Under the pieces are notes generated by a model that was given only the letters and a program-made list of their open reading frames with translations, was not told the DNA's origin and ran no database searches. Made by a program: the position numbers and the translations under genes. From NCBI GenBank assembly GCA_051313645.2, contig JBNRSN020000006.1, positions 168,640,001 through 168,704,000 on the forward strand: DNA of 64,000 bases. Reading direction: 5' to 3'. Source of the DNA: Centroscyllium fabricii (lineage: Eukaryota). Within the stretch, counting starts at the first letter, position 1. Each line of letters opens with the position of its first letter. Positions 9,797-60,510 of the stretch are shown here, in pieces.

Positions 9797-12700
9797 TGTG
9801 GAAATTAACGAATTTCCACAAAGAAATGAGGCCACACAAGAGCACAATCAAAACAGGCCTTTACTGTCATATACAGTAGCAGGGACTGCCTGGGCAGCCC
9901 CGTGGCTGACGTGATGTCATCATGTTTGCCCGCGTTTTCCTGCACTCTTAAAGGGGCCACGTCCCGCATATACAAACAATATATACAAAACAGTGATGCC
10001 TAACACCATGGTCGAAGATCAGGCTGGTGTTAGGACTTCATTAAAGTGCATTATGTACAGTTGTCAGTGGCCCTACCACATGCACACCCCCCCCCCCCCT
10101 CCCGCAGCCCCCAGAATTCGCTTTAACAGACAAAGTCAAACGGTGAAGGGGTCTGACAAGCCTGTCAGAACGACTCCTGTATTCTCGGGGCAGAGGCTGC
10201 TGAGCGGCTGGCGGTCTGTCCGGCAGACGCAATTGGTCTGCCGTAACAATGACGGGCGGGCTGCCTCATCTCGGCGGCTGTGCTGTCTCGACGGGATGGT
10301 CGGGGTCCAAATGTGCCGGCTTCAGGCGGTCGACCGAGACGTGGTCTGGTTTACCACCGACGTCGACGGTAAATGTTTTGTCCCCCGTTTCCAAGGTGCG
10401 GAAGGGGCCAGTGTATGGGGCCTTGAGCGGAACTCTATGTGCGTCATGGCGGATGAACACGTATTCCGCCTTGGAGCTCTGTAGGTACATGTGACCTCTG
10501 CAGCCAGTAATGGGAAGTGGGCACCAGAACAAAACATCTGGCAGCCTCCTGGTGCTTGGCTAGCTGGGCAGATGCGGACCACGGCTCCGTTGCAGTTGGT
10601 ATGAAATCGCCTGGAACCCTCAGCGGCTGACCGTACACCAGCTCCACCGATGAAGAGTGAAGGTCTTCTTTGGGGGCCGTACAAAGGCCCAACAGAACCC
10701 ACGGCAGCTTGTCAACCCATCCTGCGTCCTGGAGGGTGGCATTCATTGACCGGTGGAAATGTTTGCAGAGGTTGTTCGCCTGCGGATGGTAGGCTGTGGT
10801 GCAGTGCAGTTTGACACCAAGCCCATGAGCCACCACGTTCCAGAGTTCAGAGGAGAACTGCGGTCCCCTGTCAGATGAAAGATCAGCGGGAACTCTGAAA
10901 TGGGTGACCCACGAAGGGATGAATGCCCTGGCCACGTCCGCCGAAGTGGTGGAGGAGAGTGGAACTGCCTCCAGCCATCTGGTGGTGCGGTCGACCATGG
11001 TGAGGATATGTGAAAAACCATGGGAGAGTGGGAGCAGAGCTACCAGGTACACGTTGATGTGGTCAACACATTGCTCTGGACTGTGAAGGTGGCCAATGGT
11101 GCTTTGATGTGACGCTGAAACTTGGCCCTTTGGCAGACCACGCAAGTGCTGGCCCAGTTGCGGATGTCTTTGTGCATGCCGTGCCATACAAATTTCACTG
11201 ACATCAGCTTCTAGGGGGGCCTCCATTCCAGGGTGTGACAACCCGTGTATAGCGTCAAAGACTTTGCGGCGCCAAGCACCTGGCACAACATGTCGGGGAT
11301 CTTGCACAGAGATGTCACACAGCAGTGCGGTGCCTGCTGATTGGAACTGGACGTCAGCCAGTTGGAGGCCGGTGACGGCTGTTCTGTACGCTTGGACTTC
11401 CGGGTCTGAGTTTTGATCTGCTGCCATGAGGGCATAGTTGATATCCAAAAGGACCGTGTTGATGGCCGCGCAGGAGAGGCAGTCTGCCACCAGGTTGTCC
11501 TTACCGGCCACGTGTTGTGTATCCATGGTATATTCGGATCTGTAGGTCAGTTGCCGCTGTTGTCGGTCTGACCATGGCTTGGCGGTCTTGGCCATTGCGA
11601 ACGTTAATGACTTATGATCCACAAAAGCTGTGAAGGGCCGCCCCTCGAGGAGAAAACGGAAATGGCGGATAGCCAGAAAAAAGGCGAGCAACTCCCGGTC
11701 GAACATGCTGTAAGCTCTCTCATTCTGCTGCAGTTGATGGCTGAAGCATGCCAACAGATGCCAGGTACCTTTCACCCACTGCTGTTGAACCACATCAAAT
11801 GCGTAGTCCAACGCATCGGTGGTGAGGGCGATGGTGGCTCCTGGTTGCGGATGCGACAACGTAGTCGCATTGGCTAAAGTGCTTTTGGTGTCAGAATGCT
11901 CGGGCCATGTCATCCATCCAGTCTACCAGATTCTTGCCAGTCTTGCCCTTGAGGGCCTCGTACAGGGGCTGCATGAGTAGTGCCGCCTTAGGCACGAAAC
12001 GGTGGTAAAAGTTTACCATGCCCAGGAACTCTTGCAGGGCCTTCACGTTCTGCGGGCGTGGAAAGGATGTCACCACCTCTACCTTGCAGGTAAAGGCACA
12101 GCTCCCTCTGAGGTGATGCGATGCCCCAGGAAATCAATTTGGTGCGGGCCAAATTGACACTTGGCCGGGTTGATAATGAGGCCGTGTTGACTGAGGGGTT
12201 GGAAAAGGGTGCGTAGGTGACTGAGGTGTTCTGCCTTGATCGGACTGGCAATCAGAATGTCATCCAGATAGATGAAGAGGAACTTGGGTCCCGCAGCACG
12301 GAGTCCATCAGGTGTTGGAAGGGCTGGGCGGCATTCTTTAAGCCGAACGGCATTCACAAAAATTCAAAGAGGCCGAACGGGGTGCTGACTGCGGTCTTCT
12401 GGACATCCTGTGGATGAACTGGAACCTGGTGGTAGCCCCGGACAAGGTCGACCTTGGAGAAGACGGTGTTATCTGCCAAATGGGCAGAGAAATCTTGAAT
12501 GTGGGGGATTGGGTACCGATCAGGTGTGGTGGCATTGTTAAGACATCGATAGTTGCCGCAAGGCCGCCATCCACCGCCAGGCTTTGGGACGATATGGAGA
12601 GGTAAAGACCAGGGACGATTCGACCGGTAAATAATCTCCAACCGTTCCATGGTCGCAAACTCCGCCTTTGCGATTGCCAGCTTCGAGACGCCAGGCCTGC

Positions 12701-14223
12701 ACGTAAACTGGGGGGCCGTTGGTGGTATTGTGATGCTCCACCCCATGTTTGGTGGATGTGGAGGAGAAAGTGAGCCTCGTTAGGCCTGGGAATTCACTGA
12801 GCAGGCGAGCAAACTCGTCAGGCATCAGGAATGCACAGGAGACGGTGCGTGACATCGTGTTACTGTGGTAACACGGGAGGGAATGAAAAGCTGCTGCATT
12901 AATCAGCTGCTGATTCCAGACGTCAACCAGAAGGTTGTTGGCGCACAGAAAATCCGTGCCAAGGAGGGGCTGGGAAACTTTGGCCGTTACAAAATCCCAA
13001 TGAAAACGTTGCACCCCGAGGCACACCTCCACTCGCCGCCTGCTGAAGGTCCAGATTGCTCCACCATTGGCCGCTTCAAGGGTGGGTCCGTGATTTCCCC
13101 GTCTGCACATGGAGGGCGGACACTGGTAAAATGCTGCACTGCGTACCGGTGTCACACAGAAACTGATGACCGGAGAGGATATCGGTGATGAAGAGCAATT
13201 TTCCCGCACTACCGACCGCCACTGCGGGATGCTTGTTAGACCTGGTCTTCGGTGGGCGCGGTGTCAGTTGGTAGATTTTTTGGGGGGTCAAAAAGTGCAG
13301 GGAGGGCGGCAGCACCTCGCCTTCGTGCCGAACTGCACATGGTAGAAGCACAGCCCAGTAGTCTGATGAGCTGGGGCGGTTTCCGTGGGGGCTGGGAGCC
13401 TCGTGGCGGCACAGTATTGTCGAGTTACTGCAAAAATTTTACCAGCTTCAGCAGGGAGGGCTGCACAGTCAGTGACTTCGGAGTTAGCCAGGGCAGCTTG
13501 TACCTGCTCACGTAGCTGGCTGAGGAATAGTTCCCAAAAGAGGACGCATTCTGGTTCGGAATCCAGGAGCGTGAGCATCTGGCTCATCAATTCAGAGGGC
13601 TTGGAGTCCCCGATCCCGGGCATAGAGCGTAAATCGGTGGGCGCGCTCAGATTTAGTGAGTCCGAAGACCTGCAGCAACTGTGCTTGGAGTGTTGTACTT
13701 GCGCTCCGCAGGGGGTTTTCAAGGAGGCTGACGATCCGAGAGGCGGTGGAGCTGTCGAATGCAGAGACCACAGAGGAATTTGGTCTGATCCGTCACGATA
13801 TCTCGCAGGGCGAACTGGGCCTCGACCTGGATAAACCACACGAGCGCTTGCTGCTCCCAGAACTGCGGTAGTTTCAATGCAACGGCATTGGCTGCCATCC
13901 TGTGTAATCGTTTGTGAAATCGTTCACAAAAAAGTGGGGTCACCACTGTGGGAATTAACGAATTTCCACGAAGAAATGAGGGCACACAGGAGCACAATCA
14001 AAACAGGTCTTTACTCTCTGATACAGTAGCAGGGACTGCCTGGGCAAAGACGTGACGTCATCACGTTTGCCCACATTTTCCCAGCACTCTTAAATGGGCC
14101 ACGCCCCACATATACAAACATTATATACAAAGCACAGTGATGCCTAACACCATGGTCAAAGATCAGGCTGGTGTTAGGACTTCGTTAAAGTGAATTATGT
14201 AGTTAGTCAGTGGCCCTGCCACA
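9797..14223 (-). mobile_element. Full-length degenerate Ty3/Gypsy LTR retrotransposon, CsRn1-clade-like
   Basis: LTRs 9797-10080 and 13947-14223 (TG...CA, visibly diverged); 4-bp TSD AGGT (9793-9796, 14224-14227); PBS TGGTGACCCC (13945-13936, tRNA-Trp-like); G-rich PPT next to 10081; gag VALKLPQFW...WFIQVEAQF with CHCC knuckle CFYH...C...C; protease FLCDTG; RT YLDD; RNase H; integrase SDRGPQF. Confidence 0.92.
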
Positions 14224-25271: not shown

Positions 25272-25292
25272 CTATTTGCTTCTGTTCCGCTC
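25272..25292 (-). CDS. YTHDF3: YTHDF3 last coding exon (ERNRSK*)
   Basis: Minus strand: TTTTGCAG|GAG CGG AAC AGA AGC AAA TAG TAA. Joins in phase 0 to ...EEEAIRR and matches the mammalian YTHDF3 C-terminus RRERNRNKQ as recalled. Confidence 0.9.
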   Translation of the reverse strand, partial: ERNRSK

Positions 25293-37808: not shown

Positions 37809-39511
37809 GACCGACCTCTACCAAGCGGAAGCTGAACGCCAACTCTCCGACACCTCCTCCTACCTCCACCTGGACCATAACCCACTACTGAACATCAATC
37901 CACCGTTTCCAAGACTGTCACAGACTTATCTCCTCTGGAGATCTTCCCCACGACCACCAACCTCATAGTTCCCCAACCCCGCACAGCCCGCTTCTACCTC
38001 CTTCCTAAGATCCACAAACAAGACTGCTCTGGTAGACCCATCGTTTCAGTCTGTTCTTGCCCCACGGAACTTAGCTCTTCCTATCTCGACTCTATTTTTT
38101 CTTCCCTTGTCCAGTCTCTTCCCACCTATATCCGCGACTCTTCCGACGCCCTCCGTCACCAGTTTCTCGTCCCCAACCGCCTCCTTTTCACTATGGATGT
38201 ACAATCCCTCTACACCTCCATCCCCCACCAGGATGGCCTGAGGGCGCTCCGCTTCTTCCTTGAACAGAGGCCCGACCAGTCCCCATCCACCACCACCCTC
38301 CTCCGCCTGGCTGAACTTGTTCTCACATTGAACAACTTCTCCTTTGACTCCACTCATTTCCTCCAAATCAAAGGTGTTGCTATGAGTACCCGCATGGGTC
38401 CTAGCTATGGTTGTCTTTTCGTGAGATATGTGGAACACTTTGTTCCAGTCCTACTCGGGTCCCCTACCTCGCCTCTTTTTCCAGTACATTGATGACTGTA
38501 TCGGTGCCGTCTCCTGCTCTCGCCCTGAAATCGAAAATTTAATTCACTTTGCTTCCAATTTCCACCCTTCACTCGGTCCATCTCCGACTCTTCCCTTCCT
38601 CGACGTCTCCATCTCCATCTCCATCTCCATCTCCATCTCCATCTCCATCTCCATCTCCATCTCTGGGGATAGGTTGTTGACCAACATTCACTACAAGCCC
38701 ACTGACTCCCACAGCTACCTGGGCTACACTTCCACCCACCCCGCCACCTGTAAGGACTCCATTCCATTCTCCCAGTTCCTCCGTCTCCGCCGCATCTGCT
38801 CTGATGATCCCACCTTCCATACCAGTGCTTCCGACATGTCTTCCTTTTTCCTCAACCGAGGATTCCCCTCTACTGTGGTTGACACAGCCCCCTACCGTGT
38901 CCGTTCTACCTCTCGCACTTCTGCCCTCACCCCTGCCCCTCCCTCCCGGAACCACGATAGGGTTCCCCTTGTCCTCACCTATCACCCCACCAGCCTCCAC
39001 ATTCAACGGATCATCCTCCACCATTTCCGCCACCTCCAGCGTGATCCCACCACCAAATGCATCTTCCCATCACCTCCCCTTCCCGCATTCCGTAGGGACC
39101 GCTCCCTCCGCCACACCCTAGTCCACTCCTCTACCACCCCCAGCACACCTTCCCCTTCGCCCGGCACCTTCTCATGTAAGTGCAGGAGATGCAACACTTG
39201 CCCTTATGCCCTTCTCACTGTCCAGGGCCCCAAACACCCCTTCCAGGTGAAACAGCGATTTACGTGTACTTCCTGCAATTTAGTATACTGTATTCGCTGC
39301 TCACGATGTGGTCTCCTATACATTGGGGAGACCAAACGCAGATTGGGTGACCACTTTGCGGAACACCTCTGTTCAGTCCGTAAGGGGAACACCGAGCTCC
39401 CGGTGGCCTGTCACTTTAATTCTCCATTCCACTCCCATTCACACCTCACTGTCTGTGGCCGGTTGCATTGTTCCACGGAAACTCAGCGTAAACTCAAGGA
39501 ACAGCACCTCA
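37809..39511 (+). mobile_element. Penelope-like element (RT + GIY-YIG endonuclease), resuming at ~47697-47760
   Basis: LPKIHK, MDVQSLYTSIPH, GVAM, QYIDD, YKPTD, LVYCIRC..CGLLYIGET; the C-terminus (FHLGT.QP.GL...FNNF) lies after the SINE/ERV insertion. Confidence 0.9.
38605..38664 (+). repeat. (ATCTCC)n hexamer microsatellite inside the Penelope RT
   Basis: 8 perfect units 38611-38658 plus variant flanking units; encodes an in-frame (IS)n tract. Confidence 0.95.
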
Positions 39512-39761
39512 TAGAAACATAGAAGATAGGAGCAGGAGTAGGCCATTCAGCCATTCGAGCCTGCTCCGCCATTCAATGAGATCATGGCTGATCATCCAAA
39601 CCCAATACCCCACCCCTACCCTCTCCCCATAATCCCTATCGAGCCTGCACGGACACATATTCCCACCCTATCCCTGTAACCCCACATATTTAATCCCCCT
39701 AACACTAAGGGTCAATTTATCATGGCCAATCAACCTAATCCGCGCATCTTTGGACTGTGGG

Positions 39762-40774
39762 TGAGGAAATATACTTTGAACGGACACTCATTTTGGACAC
39801 TTGTCTATGAAACATGGCAACCATGTTTGGTTTCAGCCCGACTCTGAAGGGTTAAATAGTCTTGCTTTTAAATAAAAACTGTGCCTTTTCTATGTGAAAA
39901 GCAGTATTTGAAATACTGTGGAATGTTTAGAAAAGCAACCCAGTCAACCACGCATCTAGCCCCATACTTCTATCTTGATAAGATAACCTTTTGCTGTGAT
40001 CTCTTCAGGGCAGAGAGACATTACTTTGTGAAGGTATCATTTTACCCCTGAAAACTATAAGCCGTTTGTTTTTCTGAGAGAAATAATCAATCTTGTTGGG
40101 ATATAAAAACAAGTGGAGAATCTACTTTGCTTTTCTATGATAAGCAATAGATTAGTTCCAACCCTACAAAAATATCTCGTAAGCAATAGATCAGTTCAAA
40201 CCAATACCCAAAATATCTCAGTACTGATAACTGATAACCTGGTTGCACTAAAAGGTCAGTTAGAATATTTGAATTCTGCCTTTCTCGAAAGAAGCAGTAA
40301 ATTAGTTTGATACCAAAAACAACTTCTAAGGAACTTCTAAGACTTACATTTAAGCAGTAAAATATTTTCAGCAATAAATTAGTTTTGGTAATAAATTGGT
40401 ACCAAAACATCTCTCTGACCTATCTGATCTTTCTTTGATGTACGCATATGCGAGCCATTTGGAGGTTGTTATGTTTGATCGTGATATATTGAGAATTGAT
40501 CAGCCCATGTTTTTAATGCCCTTTTTACTGTATATAAGTCGCTCTGAAACCTAGCCAAGTCAGTGAATCTTCCGGAGGGAAGATTGACTCCTTGGGCTAA
40601 CATATGTGACCATTAGAAGTTGTGATCAGACTTGGTCGACTTTCTGTTGAGACCCTGGTATAATAAAGAAGGGTTTTTGTTTGTATCTAACTGTGTTGTG
40701 TTTTCTTACTGCTGACAAACTCGACAATTACCAGCGAGGGTACGGAAGACTCTATAGAAAGGGTCAGCTCGACA
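39762..40774 (+). repeat. ERV 5' LTR
   Basis: 1013 bp; TATATAAG at 40531-40538; AATAAA at 40662-40667; ~39-bp U3 direct repeat at 40141-40219; several GATAA motifs. Confidence 0.97.
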
Positions 40775-40777
40775 TTT

Positions 40778-40795
40778 TGGTGGCAGCGGTGGGAT
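40778..40795 (+). promoter_or_regulatory. Primer-binding site, tRNA-Leu
   Basis: TGGTGGCAGCGGTGGGAT(TC), 3 nt after the LTR; complementary to the 3' end of vertebrate tRNA-Leu(AAG/TAG) (...GAATCCCACCGCTGCCA-CCA, recalled). Confidence 0.88.
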
Positions 40796-41386
40796 TCCAA
40801 TCGAGGGTTTGATGTGAAGTGGTTGAACCAGTGACCCAGACGAAAGGACTGAGGGAATTGGCCAGCAAAGTGAGTATATTTAGTTAAATTGCCACTTTGT
40901 TTTCCCAACTGTCTTGAAACTTTGAGTCCATATCACCACTGAAACATCACCCCGAGACGGAATCCGAATCAGTCAGTTGTCAGAGTGATTAGAAAGAAAA
41001 CCCAACGAAAGCATCCTGTGGTAAGTAGTAAACCGTGAATCTCGTCAGAGTAGGTACTAAAAGGATACGGTAAAAAGACCGTGAGGAGACCCGTCTGGGC
41101 AGGTTAAAGGAGGAATTCTGAGTGTCGGAAAAATTTGAAGGTTTAAAGGCTGAACCGAGGAAGGAAAAGAATCCCGTCAGGGTGCACTCCCATAAAGAGA
41201 GAGAGTGTTTAAATTGGGGAAGAGCCCACATTCGGAAAAGAGACACTGTGATTGGAAATACAGGAATCCTCCAAGGTAGGAAAAGACTGATCAGCATTTA
41301 AAAAAAAAAAAAAAAGGTAAAACTGTTATTACATTAAATAAGGACCTCACTCGTAGGGGTGAGGAATTGACGGAGTATATAGACAT

Positions 41387-41539
41387 ATGTATTTAGTAAT
41401 TGTTTTTCTTATAATTATAATTATCCTGGTTCTTTTGTTGATTATCTGGTTGATTGAAAAACGTAATTATCACTGTGTCCCAATTGTCGGTAAAACCAAA
41501 CTTAAACCAGCTCAGGAACCCTTAACTACCAATGGGTAA
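41387..41539 (+). CDS. Putative 50-aa pre-gag membrane micro-ORF
   Basis: Manual translation MYLVIVFLIIIIILVLLLIIWLIEKRNYHCVPIVGKTKLKPAQEPLTTNG*; overlaps the gag ATG by 8 nt; shorter than any ORF in the supplied track. Confidence 0.45.
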   Translation: MYLVIVFLIIIIILVLLLIIWLIEKRNYHCVPIVGKTKLKPAQEPLTTNG

Positions 41540-42560
41540 TATTCAGGACACTTGCACGGACCCATCCCGACCCTTACAACAGTTATGTAACATACATCCT
41601 GAGAAAGGGGTGGACTTTAGACAATTGTCCGCAGGACTGAGTAAAAAATTAGGACTTGAAATCTGGCCAGAGGGAGGATCTAAGGATCTAGATGTTGTTC
41701 AACGAGCTTAAGAGTTATTATGGAGTAAATCAATAGGAACTGGAAAATATAGGAAACTAATCAAACATTCTCACTTGGTCCAAGCTATTACCACCTTTTA
41801 TTTATCTTTTATTTCTCCAAAAGTAACCCAATATACCTATATTGTGCTCGTTGAAATTAGACAACTGTCTGTGGAAAGGGTTAACTGCTCTGCAGATTTT
41901 TGGAAGGTGGAGCTAAACAATCATGGCACACATGAGCACGTGACTTCACGTATCAAACTGCTTTGGAAAAAGGTTACCATAGCAACCGCAAGGTTACAAC
42001 TTCTGGAAACTTCAATCTTTAGTCGTTCTTTTCAGTGTCTTTTTTTAAATACAAGATTAAACTTAAATTAGTTCAAAGTTTTTCAATTCTAGAGGCACAA
42101 TCTTATAATTTTACAAAATCCAAAACAAGACAAAGGAGCTAGCTTCTTTTAACTCAGAAGTGGGAGGAGCTAAAACAAACATACCAGAATCTTCAAGCTG
42201 AAAAAAAAAAGAAAAAACCAGATTAGAAAGAGAGAAAACCCTCAAAGACAGTTGGCAACACAATGCCTTAAAATTAGGAATTGCCCTAACCACCGGAGCC
42301 GGTGAGAAGTCAGCTGAAATATTAAAGAAGGAATGTGCAATAGCCAAATACCAGAAAAGTAGTGAAACTGAAAAAGAAAAAGTTCAAGAAGACTTACGTA
42401 AGTCAATGGTTGGCATGAGCCTTCAAGGGGATGATGAGAATTTTATGGGTGATTTACCAATAACGTATCAGTCCCTCTACCCACCTTTTCCCCTTCCCGC
42501 TCCTGTTCTTCTTGCTCCTGCCCCTCCTAATGACCCTGACCCCGTCTTAGTCCCACCATT
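41532..42560 (+). pseudogene. gag: ERV gag remnant (MA, coiled coil, Pro-rich region); disrupted and truncated
   Basis: MGN myristoylation start and WPEGGS matrix motif; in-frame TAA after ...VVQRA; frameshift at an A-run (~42201); SLYPPFPLPAP; CA and NC absent. Confidence 0.8.
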
Positions 42561-44086
42561 TAATAAGTGCCTGCAGATTAGCTGAAGACAAATCTGTTAA
42601 CATTTACACTGACTCTAGATACGCCTTCGGCGTGGTCCATGACTTTGGACAGTTATGGAAGAATAGAGGATTTCTCACCTCATCAGGAACACCTATTTCC
42701 AACCAATTACTAGTCTCCCAATTGTTAGAAGCCTTGCAGTTACCCCTTCAGATAGCAGTTATTAAATGTGCAGCACACACTTCTGGTAATACACCCGTAC
42801 AAATTGGTAATCGTAATGCCGACTTTGCAGCAAAGGCAGCGGCTAAGGGGCCAAAAATTGTGGTTCCCCAGATGATGATACAATCTAAAAGTTCACAGTT
42901 GAACAAGGAGGTCCCGAGAAAACCTATGCCAACCATCCAAGAGGTTCTTAACCTACAGGGGGACGCTCCTGATGCGCAAAGAAATGAATGGGCCTTGCAC
43001 GATTGTAAGCAAGAGCTATCTGGCCTCTGGACTACTCCAGTAGGTCAGACCTGTATGACTGATACTTTAGCTTTTTGGGTTCTCGATTGTATACATCTGG
43101 CAACTCATTGTGGTGCAAAACAGACTACGGATGCGTTGCTCCACACTTGGTGGCATCCACGTCTAAAACAGTTGGCTGATAAAATCAGCAACCGATGTCT
43201 CACCTGTGCTACATTTAATCCTGGCAAAGGAACCATTTGCCAGGCTGGGAAAACCCCACTACCTCAAGGTCCCTTTGAGACCTTGCAAATGGATTACATT
43301 GAGTTGCCCAGATGTCACTGTTATAAATATGTTCTTGTTATTGTTGATGTTTTCTCAAAATGGATTGAAGCCTATCCTACTGTTGATAACAAAGCCACCA
43401 CGGTTGTTAAAGTTCTTCTGCGAGAAATTATTCCCAGGTATGGCATACCCGCCAGACTCAGTTCAGACAATGGACCCCACTTTATCGGGGCGATCAATAA
43501 GGAAATGTGCCTCCAATTAGGCATTAATCAACAGCTCCATTGTGCCTATCGACCCCAAGCAGCAGGATTGGTTGAAAGAATGAACCAAACCTTAAAGACC
43601 AAGCTTGGCAAATTACAGGACCAAACAGGTTCTACCTGGCTTAAACTCCTACCTATTGCTCTTTTTCAAATCCGTGTTACCCCAGCTGGGGCCAGCAGAT
43701 TATCACCAGCAGAAATTGTTTACGGACGCCCACTCCGTACCCCTTGGACTGATGTCACCCCTGCTCCTGTACAATTTCACCACATGACTGAGGAAATGAC
43801 CACTTATGTTCTTTCTCTAACCAAAGCTCTCAAAATTGCTCACTCACAGGTTAGAGCTGCCTTCGGTGAATCAATCAATATCCCTGAGTCAACAGCAATC
43901 ACTCCAGGTTCATTTGTTCTGGTTAAAAACTTTGCACGTAAGCACTCGCTTGAACCTCGCTGGGAAGGTCCGTTCCAGGTACTACTAACTACCCCTACAG
44001 CTGCCAAAGTTGAAGGTCGCTCAGCATGGATCCACTTTCACCACTGTAAAGTGATTGGACAAGGCCAATCAAAGGGGGGAGAGTAA
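42560..44086 (+). CDS. pol: ERV pol remnant: C-terminal RNase H plus intact integrase
   Basis: VNIYTDSRYAFGVVHDFG, KCAAH, GNRNAD; HHCC finger; LQMDY / SSDNGPHF / GLVERMN DDE triad; WEGPFQVLLTTPTA. No protease or RT upstream. Confidence 0.93.
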   Translation, partial: LISACRLAEDKSVNIYTDSRYAFGVVHDFGQLWKNRGFLTSSGTPISNQLLVSQLLEALQLPLQIAVIKCAAHTSGNTPVQIGNRNADFAAKAAAKGPKIVVPQMMIQSKSSQLNKEVPRKPMPTIQEVLNLQGDAPDAQRNEWALHDCKQELSGLWTTPVGQTCMTDTLAFWVLDCIHLATHCGAKQTTDALLHTWWHPRLKQLADKISNRCLTCATFNPGKGTICQAGKTPLPQGPFETLQMDYIELPRCHCYKYVLVIVDVFSKWIEAYPTVDNKATTVVKVLLREIIPRYGIPARLSSDNGPHFIGAINKEMCLQLGINQQLHCAYRPQAAGLVERMNQTLKTKLGKLQDQTGSTWLKLLPIALFQIRVTPAGASRLSPAEIVYGRPLRTPWTDVTPAPVQFHHMTEEMTTYVLSLTKALKIAHSQVRAAFGESINIPESTAITPGSFVLVKNFARKHSLEPRWEGPFQVLLTTPTAAKVEGRSAWIHFHHCKVIGQGQSKGGE

Positions 44087-44316
44087 TAGTAAAAAGTGAT
44101 AGATTATGAAGTGAAAATGAACTGTTAAATGACCGATATCCGAATATTATGATTATATTTGTTTTAATTAATGTGTAGTTGGTATTTGTGATAATCATTA
44201 CTTACCTGACCCACCTCAAATAGCCCGCCCAGAAGAAAATGAAGAACTAGAAATGGTCCGACAATAGACCAAGCCACTGATACTGTTATTAAGTTTTGTA
44301 TTATAGATAAACCACG

Positions 44317-46422
44317 ATGAGCCTGACATACCTACTACTATGTGTTCTGATGCTGCTATTATCGGTGGAGATCAAAGGAAGAATAAAAAGATGCAAGCCC
44401 GGAAAGAAAATAATCCACCTATGTAAAGAAGACATAGCATCTTGTGAAGACCCCTCAGACGCTTTGGGATCGTGGAATGTCACCAAGAAAGATTTTTGCA
44501 ATGGACTGTTGACTCAATTCGACCAACAGGTCGAATTGAACGATAGACACTTCTGGACATTACCCTGTTACTTTTACAAATGCAAATATGATTTCACCTG
44601 TGAGGGGAATCGGAGCGAAGACAAGGTGTATAAGGAGCGGTTACTTGACGGGTTGTGTTGGAAAGAAGCTTTAGAAAGTCGGAACCTAGAGGTACAGGAA
44701 AGGGCTAGGCAGTCGAGAATTATTGATGCGACCAAGCTAAAACGCCGATCAGTGTCGAACTGGCACTCTTGGGATAACAACCAGTTCGTGCAGGCTTACC
44801 GAAAGATGTTTTATAATTCAACTGCATGTTACCCCTCCCTGTCTTTTTCTGATTTATTTACCCCAATCCCGCTCCCTGACCCCACCGAGTACTTGGTACA
44901 GGAGTTCGAAGAAAAGCCGCATACAAACGTTACCAAGGAGATAACCCTTAGAATGACTGCTACCTGTCTGAATGGCACGGGAAACAATGCCAATGTCAGC
45001 TATCCCTTTTGCTGGAATGGTACGGGTTATGGGTGTGCTGTAGTATGGGTACCAACCAACCTCACCTGTATTTATGATAGAACAAAGTATCAGTGCAACA
45101 AAGACGTCAAAACAGGAGAGGTTAACTGTCACCCGCACCAGCATTGTCTAAATCTTACTGGGGGAGGCCCTCAATTGGTGTGTGGGAATGCTAATCAGAC
45201 CCACATGACCATAGGTGAGCATAAGCTGACCATCATGCCTCGATTCGGTGATTCCAATAAAGGTGCAACCCCATTTGTACAACCTCTGTGTCCTGGATGG
45301 AACGGCATGGAGTTTGTCGTACCCGTCCCAGCTAAAGGCTTTAGGTACGGTGAGCATCTGTGGATAGCCCATCACCTGAAGACAGCCTTTACTAAGAAAT
45401 GTAACCAACCGGTAAAAAAAACTGGGGTAGTATACACTAAGAACGACTATTGGTTCTTTTATCAAGGGAAGGACGGTAAAGGAAAGGCTAGCAACTTTCT
45501 GGTTCCAAATGATCCTGATGGACCCACTCGGGTGGCTGTGGGAATGGTTGCACCACTAACAGTCCCGTGCCCCACTGAGTGGAAGAGACCTCCGCGGTAT
45601 TCTTGGTCAGATAGATTGAAGCGCGATGTTTACAAGGAATTTTGTGCCGACTGGGACGATCCTCAGCCCATTGGTGGCGGGGGACATGTGTTCGGTTACG
45701 CACTAGGATCGTTGTTTTCCTTGGGAGCATCCGCTGGGGCAGAAGCAGCTGAAAACCGAAACTATCTGTCTTGTGGGTTGACAATAGTAGGCAACGAAAC
45801 CCGGGATGCCATTGCGATAATCAGAAAAAGTTTAAGTGATCTTAGGGCTTTCACTTACCAAAACCGTTATGCCCTAGACTACCTCCTAGCCAGGGAAGGT
45901 GGAGTATGTGCCATAGTCCAAGGTACCTGCATTATGGGAGTTGAAGACAGATCAGAGGATCTGCTAAAGATTGAGGATAATCTAAGCACATGGTTGAGTG
46001 GAATGACGGAGGGAAAAGGATGGGGAGATTGGGGATTTGGTGGATGGTACGACTGGATTATTAATGTATTGATTTACCTTGGTATGATTGTATGTTGTAT
46101 TTTTGTTGGAATTGCTGTTTTAAAGTGTGTATTAAGCCGGATGATGAAAGCTGTGTCAGGCATTGGTAAAACCCCAAAAATGTTGTTATTACGTATAAAC
46201 TCGCCAAATTCACTGTATGTCCCCCTGAATCAACATGAAGTCACCAAATATGACAAACCCGAAGAAGAAGACGAAGATGTCTACAAGAACTTAACCAAGG
46301 AGGATAAACTAATCCGAGCAGCAGAAATCAAACAAGTGATACTGCTGGAGATCGAGGAAAGAGAAAACCGACGTTTAAATGACGAACTTCCCGGAGAGCC
46401 CACTTTTGGGGTGAAAGGGTAA
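44317..46422 (+). CDS. env: Intact 701-aa retroviral envelope glycoprotein with filovirus-GP2-like TM subunit
   Basis: Signal peptide; N-glycosylation sequons; RLKR furin site (aa 433-436); immunosuppressive-domain motif QNRYALDYLLAREGGVC; CX6C; Trp-rich membrane-proximal region; TM helix; ~95-aa tail. Acceptor TTTTGTATTATAG ends at 44306; start context CCACGATG. Confidence 0.95.
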   Translation: MSLTYLLLCVLMLLLSVEIKGRIKRCKPGKKIIHLCKEDIASCEDPSDALGSWNVTKKDFCNGLLTQFDQQVELNDRHFWTLPCYFYKCKYDFTCEGNRSEDKVYKERLLDGLCWKEALESRNLEVQERARQSRIIDATKLKRRSVSNWHSWDNNQFVQAYRKMFYNSTACYPSLSFSDLFTPIPLPDPTEYLVQEFEEKPHTNVTKEITLRMTATCLNGTGNNANVSYPFCWNGTGYGCAVVWVPTNLTCIYDRTKYQCNKDVKTGEVNCHPHQHCLNLTGGGPQLVCGNANQTHMTIGEHKLTIMPRFGDSNKGATPFVQPLCPGWNGMEFVVPVPAKGFRYGEHLWIAHHLKTAFTKKCNQPVKKTGVVYTKNDYWFFYQGKDGKGKASNFLVPNDPDGPTRVAVGMVAPLTVPCPTEWKRPPRYSWSDRLKRDVYKEFCADWDDPQPIGGGGHVFGYALGSLFSLGASAGAEAAENRNYLSCGLTIVGNETRDAIAIIRKSLSDLRAFTYQNRYALDYLLAREGGVCAIVQGTCIMGVEDRSEDLLKIEDNLSTWLSGMTEGKGWGDWGFGGWYDWIINVLIYLGMIVCCIFVGIAVLKCVLSRMMKAVSGIGKTPKMLLLRINSPNSLYVPLNQHEVTKYDKPEEEDEDVYKNLTKEDKLIRAAEIKQVILLEIEERENRRLNDELPGEPTFGVKG

Positions 46423-46518
46423 AAAATCTTTTGCCCACCTTGTAAGAAACACCCCAAAGGGACGAAGAAGAACAGATGAAGAAAAATTATGGACTAATGA
46501 TGTTGCCATGAAAATGAC

Positions 46519-46531
46519 AAAAGGGGGGAAA
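46519..46531 (+). promoter_or_regulatory. Polypurine tract
   Basis: AAAAGGGGGGAAA immediately before the 3' LTR. Confidence 0.9.
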
Positions 46532-47545
46532 TGAGGAAATATACTTTGAACGGACACTCATTTTGGACACTTGTCTATGAAACATGGCAACCATGTTTGG
46601 TTTCAGCCCGACTCTGAAGGGTTAAATAGTCTTGCTTTTAAATAAAAACTGTGCCTTTTCTATGTGAAAAGCAGTATTTGAAATACTGTGGAATGTTTAG
46701 AAAAGCAACCCAGTCAACCACGCATCTAGCCCCATACTTCTATCTTGATAAGATAACCTTTTGCTGTGATCTCTTCAGGGCAGAGAGACATTACTTTGTG
46801 AAGGTATCATTTTACCCCTGAAAACTATAAGCCGTTTGTTTTTCCTGAGAGAAATAATCAATCTTGTTGGGATATAAAAACAAGTGGAGAATCTACTTTG
46901 CTTTTCTATGATAAGCAATAGATTAGTTCCAACCCTACAAAAATATCTCGTAAGCAATAGATCAGTTCAAACCAATACCCAAAATATCTCAGTACTGATA
47001 ACTGATAACCTGGTTGCACTAAAAGGTCAGTTAGAATATTTGAATTCTGCCTTTCTCGAAAGAAGCAGTAAATTAGTTTGATACCAAAAACAACTTCTAA
47101 GGAACTTCTAAGACTTACATTTAAGCAGTAAAATATTTTCAGCAATAAATTAGTTTTGGTAATAAATTGGTACCAAAACATCTCTCTGACCTATCTGATC
47201 TTTCTTTGATGTACGCATATGCGAGCCATTTGGAGGTTGTTATGTTTGATCGTGATATATTGAGAATTGATCAGCCCATGTTTTTAATGCCCTTTTTACT
47301 GTATATAAGTCGCTCTGAAACCTAGCCAAGTCAGTGAATCTTCCGGAGGGAAGATTGACTCCTTGGGCTAACATATGTGACCATTAGAAGTTGTGATCAG
47401 ACTTGGTCGACTTTCTGTTGAGACCCTGGTATAATAAAGAAGGGTTTTTGTTTGTATCTAACTGTGTTGTGTTTTCTTACTGCTGACAAACTCGACAATT
47501 ACCAGCGAGGGTACGGAAGACTCTATAGAAAGGGTCAGCTCGACA
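46532..47545 (+). repeat. ERV 3' LTR
   Basis: 1014 bp; by eye identical to the 5' LTR except for one extra C (TTTTTCCTGAG vs TTTTTCTGAG). Confidence 0.97.
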
Positions 47546-47790
47546 TGGGAGGAAACCAAAGCACCCGGAGGAAACCCACGCAGACACGAGGAGAATGTGC
47601 AAACTCCACACAGATAGTACCCGAGGCTGGATTTGAACCCGGGTCTCCAGTGCTGTAAGGCAACAGTGCTAACCACTGTGCCACCGTGCCGCCCTGTGGC
47701 TTTCACTTAGGCACTCGACAGCCCTCTGGACTAAGCAGAGTTCAACAATTTTAGATCATAACCTCAGCCCCGGTCACATTTTTATATATA

Positions 47791-48514
47791 CAGGTTGAAC
47801 ACCATTATACCGTCACGGGCGGGGCTAGGCCTGCGCCAGTACAGCGAAAAAACCGGAAGAATGAAGCCTGCCAGCACCATTCAAAATGGACGCGCGCATG
47901 CGCACAACATTGGAAATGGCCGCCGGAAGTTTTGATCACCTGCAGGCCTGAGTGAAATGAGTGAAAGCCTGATCTTACAAACCCATCCGCAGGAGGATCA
48001 TTTTATATTAAAAAGCGGATTCACCGACAGCTCAAAATTCACACAAACTCGTTTCTCATTTCCTCGCCTAAAACATGTCACTGCCATCTGACAGCAACAA
48101 AGTCCCTTCTTCCTCACCTGTTGCAGGTAAAACTCGGCGACTCACTCACTTGTAACAGGTTTAATAAGATGAGGTACACGTGGTTATCTACCAATCTCTC
48201 ACACCAATTTTTAAAGCTTCGTCCAGCCCCATAGCGCTGGCTGGCTGCACTGTGCTGGCCCCACTCAGGAAAGGCCCCTCTCCGATAAATCGCCCTGACT
48301 GCCATGTGCATGCGCAAAATTGCCGCCGCGATCGATGCTTCCGGCGGCCATTTTGAATGATCTACGCATGCGTTCGGCGGTGCATGCGCAGATCATTCGC
48401 TGAAGCATCGATCGCGGAGGCCATTTTGCGCATGTGCAGGGCAGTCGGGGCGATTTATGCTGGACGACTGAAGTTGCCGGCTTTTCGGTTACCGGATTAA
48501 CGGTGCTCAACCTG
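47791..48514. mobile_element. Tigger/pogo-like MITE (copy 3)
   Basis: TA TSD; CAGGTTGAACACC ... GGTGCTCAACCTG termini. Confidence 0.8.
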
Positions 48515-49471: not shown

Positions 49472-50890
49472 CAGGGTGCTACAAAAAAATAAAAATTCAC
49501 TTGCCCGTTCGGGCAAGGGGATTTCTAAAACATTTGCCTGAACACACATTTCATTTGCCCAATATTTTTAAAGAAATAAATAAATATTTTACATTTTTAT
49601 TAAAATGCTTCAATATAAAGCCATAGATTGCGATTGTGCCTTTAGTTGCATTGGCCCGGTTTCTACCCCTCTCTGCCAGGGTCTCTCTACTCTGAACATT
49701 CTTCCCTCATTTACCAAACATTCTGTGAAGCCTCCGCAGGCCACGGGCTCCCTCACTCTCTCCCCGCCTACCTTCATCCAGCAGCCGCTCCGGTTTTTTC
49801 TCTCCCCCTCAGCGGGTCGACGGCACTGACCCACTCTTGCCGGGCACCACCTAACCCGACTGCTGCCCCGTCCCGATTGACACGCCGCCGCCTCCTCCAA
49901 TCCCCACCGCGCCGCCCGGCCCTCCCAGCCAATCTGCACCCGCTTCCAGGACGGGAGCCACCTACCCGTGCCCTCGATCAAAAGTGGTTTTGTCGCGCCC
50001 TGGACGGTCCCTGGATTGGGTCTCTGGGTGCCAGGGTCCCTGGATTGGGTCTCTGGGTGCCAGGGTCCCTGGATTGGGTCTCTGGGTGCCAGGGTCCCTG
50101 GATTGGGTCTCTGGGTGCCAGGGTCCCTGGATTGGGTCTCTGGGTGCCAGGGTCCCTGGATTGGGTCTCTGGGTGCCAGGGTCCCTGGATTGGGTCTCTG
50201 GGTGCCAGGGTCTCTGGGTGCCAGGGTCCCTGGATGCCAGGGTCCCTGGATGCCAGGGTCCCTGGATGCCAGGGTCCCTGGATGCCAGGGTCCCTGGATT
50301 CGGCAGACTGGCAACCTGTAACCCTAATGGGAGATGAATCAGAGCTCTGTCAAACCACTGACAAGCACTACCCCCGGGACACACACTGGAAAAGCTGCCG
50401 CGCCCCTTGCACTGCGGCCACGTGACACAGGCTGCCCCGCCAATCAACCGCCTAGAGGGCAGGGCCTGGGCGTGGCTCCGTAAGTTCAAAGGTTCCCCTC
50501 TGCCGCGGACGCAGAGAAGTGAGTTGGGGACCGCCGCCTCACTTCACTGCTGGTTCGAGCTGCTGCGAGACGCTGAGGTGTTGCGGCGCCAAGTGGCGGC
50601 CGGTCGGCCAGAGCAAGCTGTGATTGGCCGAGTACGGACAGGGGGCGGGGCGCAGCACGAGAAAACTGCTGGGCTGTGATTGGCCGAGCTCGGGCGGGGC
50701 AGAGATGAAAACCAATCGGCCGATGCGCGCCCACCCCACCCCCCGCTAATCTGCACCCGCCTCCAGGGCGGGATCCACCCACCCGTTCCCATGGCCCCGA
50801 TCACTTGCCCGGTCGGGCAAGTAAGATTTTCATTTACTTGCCCGGCGGTGCATTTTACTTGCCCCGGGCAAGCGGTTTTATCGCGCCCGG
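49472..50890. mobile_element. Non-autonomous hAT-like element with a 5-bp TSD
   Basis: ATAGT|CAGGGTGCTACAAAA ... TTTTATCGCGCCCGG|ATAGT; subterminal TTGCCC/GGGCAA palindromes; the CR1 is restored on removal. Confidence 0.8.
50006..50299. repeat. Minisatellite: ~7 x 29 bp then ~5 x 16 bp
   Basis: (GGGTCCCTGGATTGGGTCTCTGGGTGCCA)n followed by (GGGTCCCTGGATGCCA)n. Confidence 0.95.
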
Positions 50891-57490: not shown

Positions 57491-58073
57491 TTGTTTGCCT
57501 GATGTGCAACACTTACACTGAATGAGTGTTTTTTTTGGCAACTACCAACTGGTTTGAAGGTGGTTAACATTTCGAAGCTTCTTTTAAGGACAATCCCTGG
57601 GTAACCAGAAGTTAGTTTTTTGTATGCATTTAAAATTCAGGCCTAAAGCAAATAAAGATCAGGTTAAAGAAACGTTAATACTGTCAACTGCACTTGAAAG
57701 GTAATTCAAGTTCTGTGAGATCTATATAGCTAAGTATACCAGTGTCAATTTTGAAATGTACAAATTACATACATCAATTCGTCTAAATGTGCCAGTTTAA
57801 TTCACAAGGTAAACACCATTCCCTCAATCTTTAAGTGTTTCAAAGGTCACAGGCCTGTAGGGGAGAATCAGCAGTACCCAGAATAGTTTCTTGTGCACTA
57901 CAGATTTCGAATATACACTCAAATGCATATATTAGGCAAGTGCATTTAAATTATGGGATTATCTGAAAAATGCCAGTGTACAAAATATCTGAAAACTAAA
58001 GAATTTTAACCACCAGTACAGCACAGCATAGCTGCAGACTAAATATCAGTCTCAACAGTTATTTTATACTTGC

Positions 58074-59642
58074 CCTACGTATGGCTTCCTCCTCCTCTTG
58101 ACGCTTTTCATAATGTGCAAAGTCATCAAAGATTGAAGTGGTATGCTTGTAAGTAGCAATTATTTTAAGCACTTGCTTGGCTTTTTCCAGGGGCACCTCC
58201 TGGGTGTCCCTTGAGTTGGTAACCGGTTTGTTATCATTGTTTTCCAATCGAATATGCCGTAGCTGGTTATTGGGTACATCTTTCACAAAGATCCACTTCA
58301 CTTCAAACTTGCCCTTCCACTTATCCTGTGACCACACTCCAGCATAAGCGTTATAGTCCACTGCGGACTTCATCTCAGCCACTCCACAAAAATGTCCACT
58401 TCCATTTACACTGAAGAGTAAATAGAGTGGCCCTTTACCGTTCAGGGAGCGGAAAGCAGCATCCAAACGTTTATTACCATGCTCAGTACTACACCAAATA
58501 GAGTATTTGATAGAACGGTGTATATCGTCCTCAGAGTAGCTTTTAATTATAAATACTCGGCCTGTCTTCAGACTCCAGTCAAAATCTTTGGGGTTGTAAT
58601 TGTGTATGCCCTTTAGTTTTTCCAACACAGGATGTACTTCTCCTCCAGATGGTGAAGTGCTTAATGATGCCATACCCAACACAAAATTCTCACTATTCGC
58701 TCCACTGTTCTGATTGAAGCCAGCTCCCCGATTGCGAGGAGCCACCCAGCGGTTTTGTGGCTGCTGTTGAACTTGAGGCTGTGGTTGTTGAGGCCCTGGA
58801 TGCGGTGGTTGTTGCTGATGTGTTGGGTGGGTCTGAATAGCAATTGGTTGCTGTGGAAGTTGATGTTGCTGGATAACAACTTGAGGAGGCATAACTTGCT
58901 GTGCAGGTGGGACTTTGGGCACATTACCTTTCTCTTCCCAAGTTCCAATATTCATGTTGTGTTTTATAGGTGGTGGTGGCACTGCAGGTCCACCTATTCC
59001 CAAGTTAGTCTTAGGCTTTAGTTTGGGCTGAGGCTTTGCAGGCTTCCTAGCAATAGCAGCCCATGATGTTGGTTTAGGTGCTGAAGTGGTTGTTGCTTGG
59101 TTGCTATTAGTAACAATGCTACTGCACATTCCTGTACTACTAAGAGCAGAACCTACAGTTTTAGTGACAGCTGTTGTCATATCTCCTCCAATCTTCAGTC
59201 CAGTCATGCCTTGCTCAATGCTATTTATGCCAGGCACCTTACTCAAAGAATCATTGCCAAATCCAGCTTGTCCATCAGCTATGGCTCTTCCAAGAGAACT
59301 GGGTGGGTATCCATAGCTGTTGCTATATGCAGAACTTTGTGTTGACTGTCCTTGAGATCCACTCGCACCCCAAGTAGAAAAATCTGCATTCCCAGGAAAA
59401 AAGTTAAATCCATGTTGATTCAAAAATGGCGGGGTGCTCCCCAGGGCCCCGGGCTGACTAAATACACCATCTGGTATAAAGTGATGTTCACCATTGCTCA
59501 TCTGTCCATATGTTGTTAAGTATGGCATTGGAGGATCTCCCCCTGTTGACCAGGGAGCTTCACCAAGTGAATATGGAAATCCAATGGAAGGAGCATAGTA
59601 ACTGGGCATATATGGGTCGGACATTGGTGGGTAGCTGTTGCT
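58074..59642 (-). CDS. YTHDF3: YTH domain-containing family protein 3, large internal coding exon (523 codons)
   Basis: Acceptor TTTTTATTTCTTGCAG|AGC; [30 protein letters not shown]-terminal region; P/Q-rich low-complexity region; complete YTH domain ([29 protein letters not shown]...SRDTQEV). Donor AGG|GCAAGT. Upstream exons are outside the window. Confidence 0.95.
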
Positions 59643-60510
59643 CTGCAAGAAATAAAAACAAAATTTAATCTACGAACATAAACAATACAGCACAAGAACT
59701 ATACATTTTTCACACAAGCTATCAGACCTTCTGTAGTGCTATTCGAGACAGAGCACACCCACTGTTTTATAAAGACATCAGCAATTATACAGTACAACAC
59801 ACTATTACTAAAGTGCAGCTGCATTTAACTTAGTGTTCCTTTAAGGTCAGATGGTGCAATTCTTATTTTTTTAATTTTTAAGAATTAAATCAATTGAAAG
59901 CTATTTTCTGTGGGTGGGAACATTTCTCTGCACACTGGAACAGACTGATTTATTCTCTTTCAGACGTGGCACAAATTTGCTTACAAGATGATGTAACACT
60001 TGAACTGATTAGCTTTATGTAACTCGTGCACACGAAACAATCCCTCATTAGTGACGGAGAAAAAAATTAATACCACATAGCAAAAACAATCAAGATTAGT
60101 TTGCAGCAATTCAAACATCACACAAATTATCTGCTATATTAAAAGTGGTTATAATCCTTTAGTTTTGTTTTAAGTTGCAGTCACTTTATACCACAGTTGC
60201 TGAACTGTTTCAAATGGTGACCTGCAGTCAATTCACACAAAGCTGAAGTTTGGAATACAAAGACATATCTATTTCATACAGTAAGCGCACACCTCCCAGG
60301 ATCTGCTGCTACTCTGGGAGCTTAATTCAATCTATAAGTGTAATTGGCCCAAAAATCTAACTACAAAAACTAAGCTGCCTTCAGGGCAATTTCTGCGGTG
60401 CCAATATTTCCATCAGCGTGCATTTATACTTCCAAAAGGGAAAATTAAACTTGGAATTTTTCTACAGGAAGCCTGCAGAAAATTTCGCTTTGCGACTATA
60501 TAAATGCAAG

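Follow-up and report, generated by a model that had tools for sequence, protein, structure and literature searches.

The window analysed here is a stretch of 64,000 nt from Centroscyllium fabricii (assembly GCA_051313645.2, contig JBNRSN020000006.1, positions 168,640,001 to 168,704,000 of the forward strand), and all positions below count from its first letter. It contains an integrated retroviral provirus of ~7.8 kb (39762-47545), with full long terminal repeats (LTRs) that start TG and end CA, a short target-site duplication (TSD), a primer-binding site (PBS) and a polypurine tract (PPT). The provirus sits in antisense orientation within what is probably the last intron of a YTHDF gene. Its parts, followed by the surrounding intron, are as follows.

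39758-39761 (+): left TSD, TGGG, inside a host repeat resembling a short interspersed element (SINE)
39762-40774 (+): 5′ LTR, 1013 nt, TG...CA, with TATATAA at 40531 and AATAAA at 40662
40778-40795 (+): primer-binding site (PBS-like 18-mer)
40796-41531 (+): leader, with candidate splice donors at 40870 and 41021
41532-41768 (+): probable matrix (MA) start of gag, with N-terminal MG and motif-level similarity
about 41769-42130 (no strand assigned): foreign-looking segment, limits approximate
42131-42558 (+): probable gag remnant, a charged stretch with a probable frameshift and a Pro-rich end; no homologue found
42559-42560 (+): deletion junction, at which mid-RNase H follows the gag remnant in another frame
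42560-44086 (+): C-terminal part of RNase H and whole integrase, open
44305-44306 (+): candidate env splice acceptor AG
44317-46422 (+): env, 701 aa, open from the ATG at 44317
46519-46531 (+): polypurine tract
46532-47545 (+): 3′ LTR, 1014 nt, with AATAAA at 47433
47546-47549 (+): right TSD, TGGG
25293-58073 (-): probable last intron (GC-AG, ~32.8 kb) of the host YTHDF gene, inferred from sequence

The two LTRs differ by no substitution and by a single 1-nt indel, an extra C at 46844 beside a T5 run. The 4-bp TSD is perfect, and the provirus splits the SINE-like repeat, which resumes across the insertion and whose two flanks match one other copy in the window (17617-17496 and 17497-17370). 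Because this repeat runs on past both flanks and the TSD is present, the insertion is clean. Moreover, given the full LTRs at both ends, the TG...CA termini and the 4-bp TSD, the element was produced by normal retroviral reverse transcription and integration. A processed copy of the L1 type was ruled out by the full LTRs at both ends and the lack of a poly(A) tail. No second copy of the provirus was found within the 64-kb window, and Rfam gave 0 matches in 39500-47800.

The leader contains two GTRAGT motifs where 0.38 were expected, and the two ATGs upstream of 41025 open only short upstream open reading frames. The PBS is presumably of the tRNA-Leu type; the window has no tRNA gene for comparison. 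An original prediction, made on this DNA from its letters, had described near-identical LTRs, an open env of 701 aa, and a retained PBS, PPT, TATA box, pair of splice donors, env acceptor and poly(A) signal. All of these were confirmed, each signal lying at the place given for it.

Lesions in gag and pol

The pol homology of the closest relatives begins abruptly at 42560, past the first catalytic residues of RNase H. What is missing at the junction is capsid (CA), nucleocapsid (NC), protease (PR), reverse transcriptase (RT) and the beginning of RNase H; the skate relative, a protein starting roughly at the protease, has 805 residues ahead of the corresponding point. The original prediction had seen here a fusion of gag to mid-RNase H. 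The junction itself stands, but the frames are not joined in phase, and a fusion protein of Gag and integrase (IN) was ruled out by the out-of-frame junction.

Downstream of the junction, the frame of RNase H and integrase (RH-IN) runs from stop to stop over 511 codons (42551-44086). The same frame had been reported as an IN ORF of 484 aa; it is indeed open, and the shorter length is a count from the GTG at 42632. The integrase motifs are in place, with HHCC at ORF codons 182/186/216/219, a D-D35-E triad of D248, D306 and E342, and a C-terminal domain of the murine leukaemia virus (MLV) type. The first Met is codon 108. Production of IN from a spliced message was not supported, several out-of-frame AUGs preceding the first in-frame Met (judged by eye), and RH-IN is apparently untranslatable, with no evident route to translation. 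Since RH-IN is intact although it has no such route, open frames in this element need no current selection. The element has no capacity to produce capsid, protease or RT of its own. With no functional gag-pol and with its cis signals kept, it is a non-autonomous endogenous retrovirus (ERV).

Of all the annotated parts, the gag remnant is the least secure. Its identification rests on position, on the N-terminal MG and on one matrix-like motif (E about 0.08), which came from a sensitive tblastn search with the N-terminal 700 aa of 15 relatives. All matches in this search were weak, and one 32-aa match at E 0.007 is probably compositional. No gag family was matched in Pfam, and of 376 candidates in a search for gag homologues, none scored. 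The in-frame TAA at 41709-41711 in the matrix stretch is real, and a probable frameshift lies near the A10 run at 42201-42210. The limits of the foreign-looking segment, like the frameshift, were drawn from reading frames and composition without an intact homologue to align. Of the damage to gag that had been predicted, the stop codon was verified, and the frameshift and foreign segment are read from frames and composition.

The foreign-looking segment has a GC content of 0.35 and a purine content of 0.47, with 0.59 and 0.55 for the flanking sides. Its composition is LTR-like, and it could be a captured promoter or a piece of U3. It holds a perfect palindrome, on the minus strand from 41986, that we take to be RFX X-box-like and that is the sole match to this pattern in the window, together with what is presumably an E-box at 41937. 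No clear terminal repeats were found around the segment. Two other origins were considered and rejected. As inverted pol, it gave one RT-like match (E 0.014 among three queries), which was dismissed, and a profile of the 40 best pol matches scored -2.7 bits, a value equalled by 29 of 100 shuffles. As a copy of an LTR or of other DNA in the window, its best match was a T-rich one of 26 nt (E 0.024), which was also dismissed.

Family placement and the envelope gene

The best pol matches are from elasmobranchs, with 69% identity in Leucoraja, 75% in Heptranchias and 65% in Scyliorhinus (among 120 listed of 288). RT being deleted, class placement was made from RH-IN, in a tree of 38 rows that comprised 37 of the 120 listed matches, chosen for host spread, and the window. 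The element and the sequences from Leucoraja, Heptranchias and Scyliorhinus formed a clade with 100/100 support, nested in a larger group (99/96) of ERVs from fish and amphibians, walleye WEHV1 among them; the tree was rooted at its midpoint and WEHV1 sits on a long branch. This grouping makes the element a class I, epsilon-like ERV of an elasmobranch lineage. The three closest proteins (Leucoraja LOC129703191, Scyliorhinus LOC119973770 and Heptranchias protein P0010) are 65-75% identical to the element across RH-IN and, unlike it, carry RT. The lineage therefore includes elasmobranch members that bear RT. CmiERV lineages II/III (PMC4422223) count, beside these three, among the nearest known systems.

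The env product has a signal peptide, an extra Cys-rich N-terminal domain, a surface subunit (SU), the cleavage site RLKR at 433-436 and a transmembrane helix. It also has a Cys-flanked internal fusion loop (C443-C486), a segment resembling an immunosuppressive domain (ISD), a CX6C motif (C531-C538) in which the third Cys is absent, and a cytoplasmic tail of about 85 aa with two YxxL-type motifs; there is no CXXC. It matched PF00429 at 23.4 bits (cut-off 22.5) and PF22307 at 20.1 bits, under the cut-off of 27, and its transmembrane subunit (TM) is nearer to filovirus GP2 (E 6e-13) than to MLV p15E (E 2.5e-4). The ISD-like segment and the TM homology (TLV_coat, heptad repeats HR1-HR2) make this a gamma-type env, one that lacks the CXXC in SU and the CX6CC in TM of the canonical covalent form. 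A TM of filovirus/alpharetrovirus-like type is already known among gamma-type envs (bioRxiv 10.1101/2021.11.23.469661; bioRxiv 10.1101/2023.10.07.561363). With the GTE-AV envs described in the first of these (avian/filovirus-like, CXnC variants), the element shares the ISD-like segment, the Cys-flanked fusion loop and the similarity to filovirus GP2; it differs in its CX6C without a third Cys, in having no CXXC in SU and in its extra N-terminal Cys-rich domain. Relatives of env were found at 392 matches with E ≤ 0.001, 12 of them at E ≤ 1e-30, the best being 51-59% identical and mostly fragments. A word-index search gave one relative among 4969 candidates.

The extra N-terminal domain spans about aa 22-145 (44380-44750) and is followed by a second basic site, KLKRR. 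Among 20 aligned relatives (P0001 and 19 chosen out of 150 listed), 7 have it, in 4 the signal peptide leads straight into SU, and 9 lack coverage of the region. A model of the domain (pLDDT 67) predicts a small beta domain plus helices. Its best Z was 3.4 among 48,161 chains and it had no match in BFVD at E ≤ 0.001, and the model of the whole env, which was poor (pLDDT 56), had no match in the PDB at the same threshold; such absent fold matches are no proof of a new fold. Atlas features for the domain led to env clusters only (best 0.91).

Age of the insertion and of its lesions

Zero substitutions in two 1013-nt LTRs limit substitution since integration to ≤0.0015 per site (95%, one-sided), which corresponds to up to 6.7 million years (Myr) at 2.2e-10 per site per year, the shark rate assumed in PMC4422223. 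The two dated CmiERVs of the same paper show LTR divergence of 2.4-3.3%, against 0.1% here, and were put at 50+ Myr (PMC4422223); the comparison is one of divergence values. At the bound, 0.015 stops are expected over the 177 nt of the matrix stretch, 0.11 over RH-IN and 0.16 over env, and the probability of no stop is 0.85 for env and 0.90 for IN. The 1027 nt of gag contain three to four separate lesions, and there are none in the 1524 nt of RH-IN or the 2103 nt of env. For three lesions this clustering has P 0.011 against IN and env together and 0.065 against IN alone, and for four lesions P 0.026 against IN. Because the LTR bound allows at most 0.015 stops in the matrix stretch, the stop, the replacement, the frameshift and the deletion together very probably predate integration, unless the LTRs have been homogenised.

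If the LTR identity is genuine, the several gag lesions set against the LTR bound thus support the claim of the original prediction that the damage is older than the insertion. Its further claim that env was selectively retained was not supported: given P = 0.85 at the upper age bound, env is expected to be open without selection, and RH-IN is equally intact.

The lesions could instead have arisen after integration, with LTR identity owed to gene conversion or to collapse or polishing in the assembly. Low LTR divergence can mislead on age (PMC4724089), the slow shark rate stretches the bound to 6.7 Myr, and large deletions keep a different clock from substitutions. However, an old insertion should show damage in IN and env, and 3.6 kb of both is open. 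Moreover, the TSD has no mismatch, and neighbouring long open frames point to few assembly errors. We consider a later origin of the lesions quite unlikely.

The open env also raises the question of host benefit, with env kept for receptor blocking or as a fusogen while the rest decays. The promoter, donors, acceptor and complete env would suit such a role, and captured env genes have reportedly been found in fish. However, at the age of this insertion env would stay open without selection, IN is just as intact, and an antisense intronic position is usual for tolerated insertions. We regard host benefit as very unlikely; env may be expressed from a spliced message, and this would require no selection on it.

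Copying of the element

One deletion by itself can occur while the provirus is being reverse-transcribed (PMC12657518) and needs no helper, whereas several separate lesions are unlikely to arise in one reverse transcription and argue for helper copying. Trans complementation figures among three standard routes by which ERVs amplify (PMC10435555). On balance, we lean towards a young replication-defective provirus that was copied by a helper and whose 5′ and 3′ parts were joined by template switching, and mobilisation in trans is the best reading of the locus. A complete helper from the same family would have packaged the RNA, which keeps the promoter, PBS, leader, PPT and poly(A) signals, and the helper's enzymes would have reverse-transcribed and integrated it. 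The damaged 5′ part would most likely stem from an older defective copy. For the 3′ part, from RH-IN through env to the LTR, the source would be an intact genome that bore env, drawn on recently through template switching among RNAs packaged together, with the switch at 42560 or close by. As young passengers, env and integrase would then be open. Copying by a helper had already been proposed in the original prediction; it is kept on the ground that separate gag lesions are unlikely in one round, and sibling copies are not its basis.

Several observations weigh against this reading. Trans complementation is accepted when several copies carry an identical disabling change (PMC6407205), and the 64-kb window has no second copy to show shared lesions. 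No close env relative (best 51-59%) and no gag relative was found, which leaves the helper itself unseen. The gag lesions were defined without an intact homologue, and the frameshift, at a homopolymer, could be a sequencing error. Lastly, the CpG observed/expected ratios of 0.43 and 0.32 in the 5′ part against 0.41 and 0.63 in the 3′ part, from small counts, do not show an older 5′ part.

The absence of a sibling in the window, together with the fresh IN and env, would also be accounted for by a one-off event, in which the reverse transcription of an autonomous genome itself caused the damage and the enzymes of the same particle integrated the copy, with neither a helper nor a non-autonomous lineage. 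This event would need the deletion, a nonsense codon, a probable frameshift and, about 430 nt upstream of the deletion, a separate apparent replacement, all in one round or soon after. The retroviral error rate is well under one change per genome per round. Because this rate is too low for several lesions in one round, a one-off origin is unlikely.

Beyond copying by a helper, the element had been proposed as an env donor in a two-component system, in reciprocal complementation with an env-less gag-pol element. All of the clear lesions do lie in gag-pol and none in env, and supply of env in trans exists in the case of the chick helper factor (PMC1617120) and has been floated hypothetically for Harlequin HERVs (PMC4724089). 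However, the clustering of damage in gag is explained equally by recombination with an intact helper. No partner was seen, and the pol relatives that were found come from other species. In a long-lived env-only lineage, IN should by now show decay like that of gag (P 0.065 with three lesions and 0.026 with four), and high-copy ERV lineages of anamniotes with such a class of env mostly keep it, in 66-91% of copies (bioRxiv 10.1101/2021.11.23.469661). Moreover, the intact IN at the end of pol is contiguous with env and implies a parent that had both, so that an env-less partner is not needed. We found no positive evidence for donation of env and hold it to be most unlikely. Very little credence attaches to the wider scheme of a multi-copy env-only subfamily and an env-less gag-pol subfamily in mutual dependence, which would make a naturally bipartite retrovirus in the elasmobranch germline. 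Such a retrovirus would use an envelope with a filovirus-like fusion subunit and an extra N-terminal domain, possibly furin-released, of undescribed fold.

Helper copying followed by integration of a defective genome has parallels. The canid CfERV-Fc1(a) shows the same pattern, being young with high LTR identity, no intact gag and an open env, and was read as having spread by trans complementation (PMC6407205). It differs in that 12 of 19 proviruses have shared lesions and its env has a dN/dS of 0.525, where here there is one copy, and in being a gamma-like mammalian ERV with a CWIC/CX6CC env, whereas the present element combines an epsilon-like pol with a CX6C env. RecKoRV, ETn/MusD and the D-type of bovine ERVK[2-1-LTR] are moved by competent relatives, and they keep LTRs and terminal gene portions with the centre lost or swapped for foreign sequence, as here (PMC10924933); they retain parts of env or none, whereas the element has kept its whole env and integrase. 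In the chick helper factor, an endogenous env complements an env-less virus, as established by experimental rescue of Bryan RSV (PMC1617120), whereas no partner was seen for the element. It works like non-autonomous ERVs of these kinds and may belong to a trans-mobilised subfamily.

A word-based search of the open-access literature gave no description of the element, of its env architecture or of reciprocal complementation between two subfamilies, although the supplements of bioRxiv 10.1101/2021.11.23.469661 may list its lineage. The element marks recent retroviral activity in the germline of cartilaginous fish and offers an intact env of a little-studied class; its youth for an elasmobranch ERV and its env architecture are mildly unusual. 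No concept is changed, defective open-env ERVs that move by complementation having been described already. Were an env-less partner and selection on env true, this would be a naturally segmented retroviral system and would matter much more.

The host gene is placed by an exon for the YTH domain at 58059-59669 (-) (E 1.8e-49), an intron with a GC donor and a short terminal exon at 25272-25292 (-). An AT-rich region at 22-26 kb fits a long 3′ untranslated region of the YTHDF gene. Other repeats surround the provirus. Directly left of the SINE-like repeat that bears it is a Penelope-like element (37881-39522), with a GIY-YIG match at E 0.0014, below the cut-off. An older Gypsy-like LTR retrotransposon at 9797-14223 (-) has LTR parts 87% identical and a decayed gag-pol, and near-perfect tandem arrays of 29 nt and 16 nt occupy 49977-50303. 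Judged by eye from translations, more Gypsy-like gag/RT fragments lie at 518-2592, and many 3′ ends of long interspersed elements (LINEs) are found across the window.

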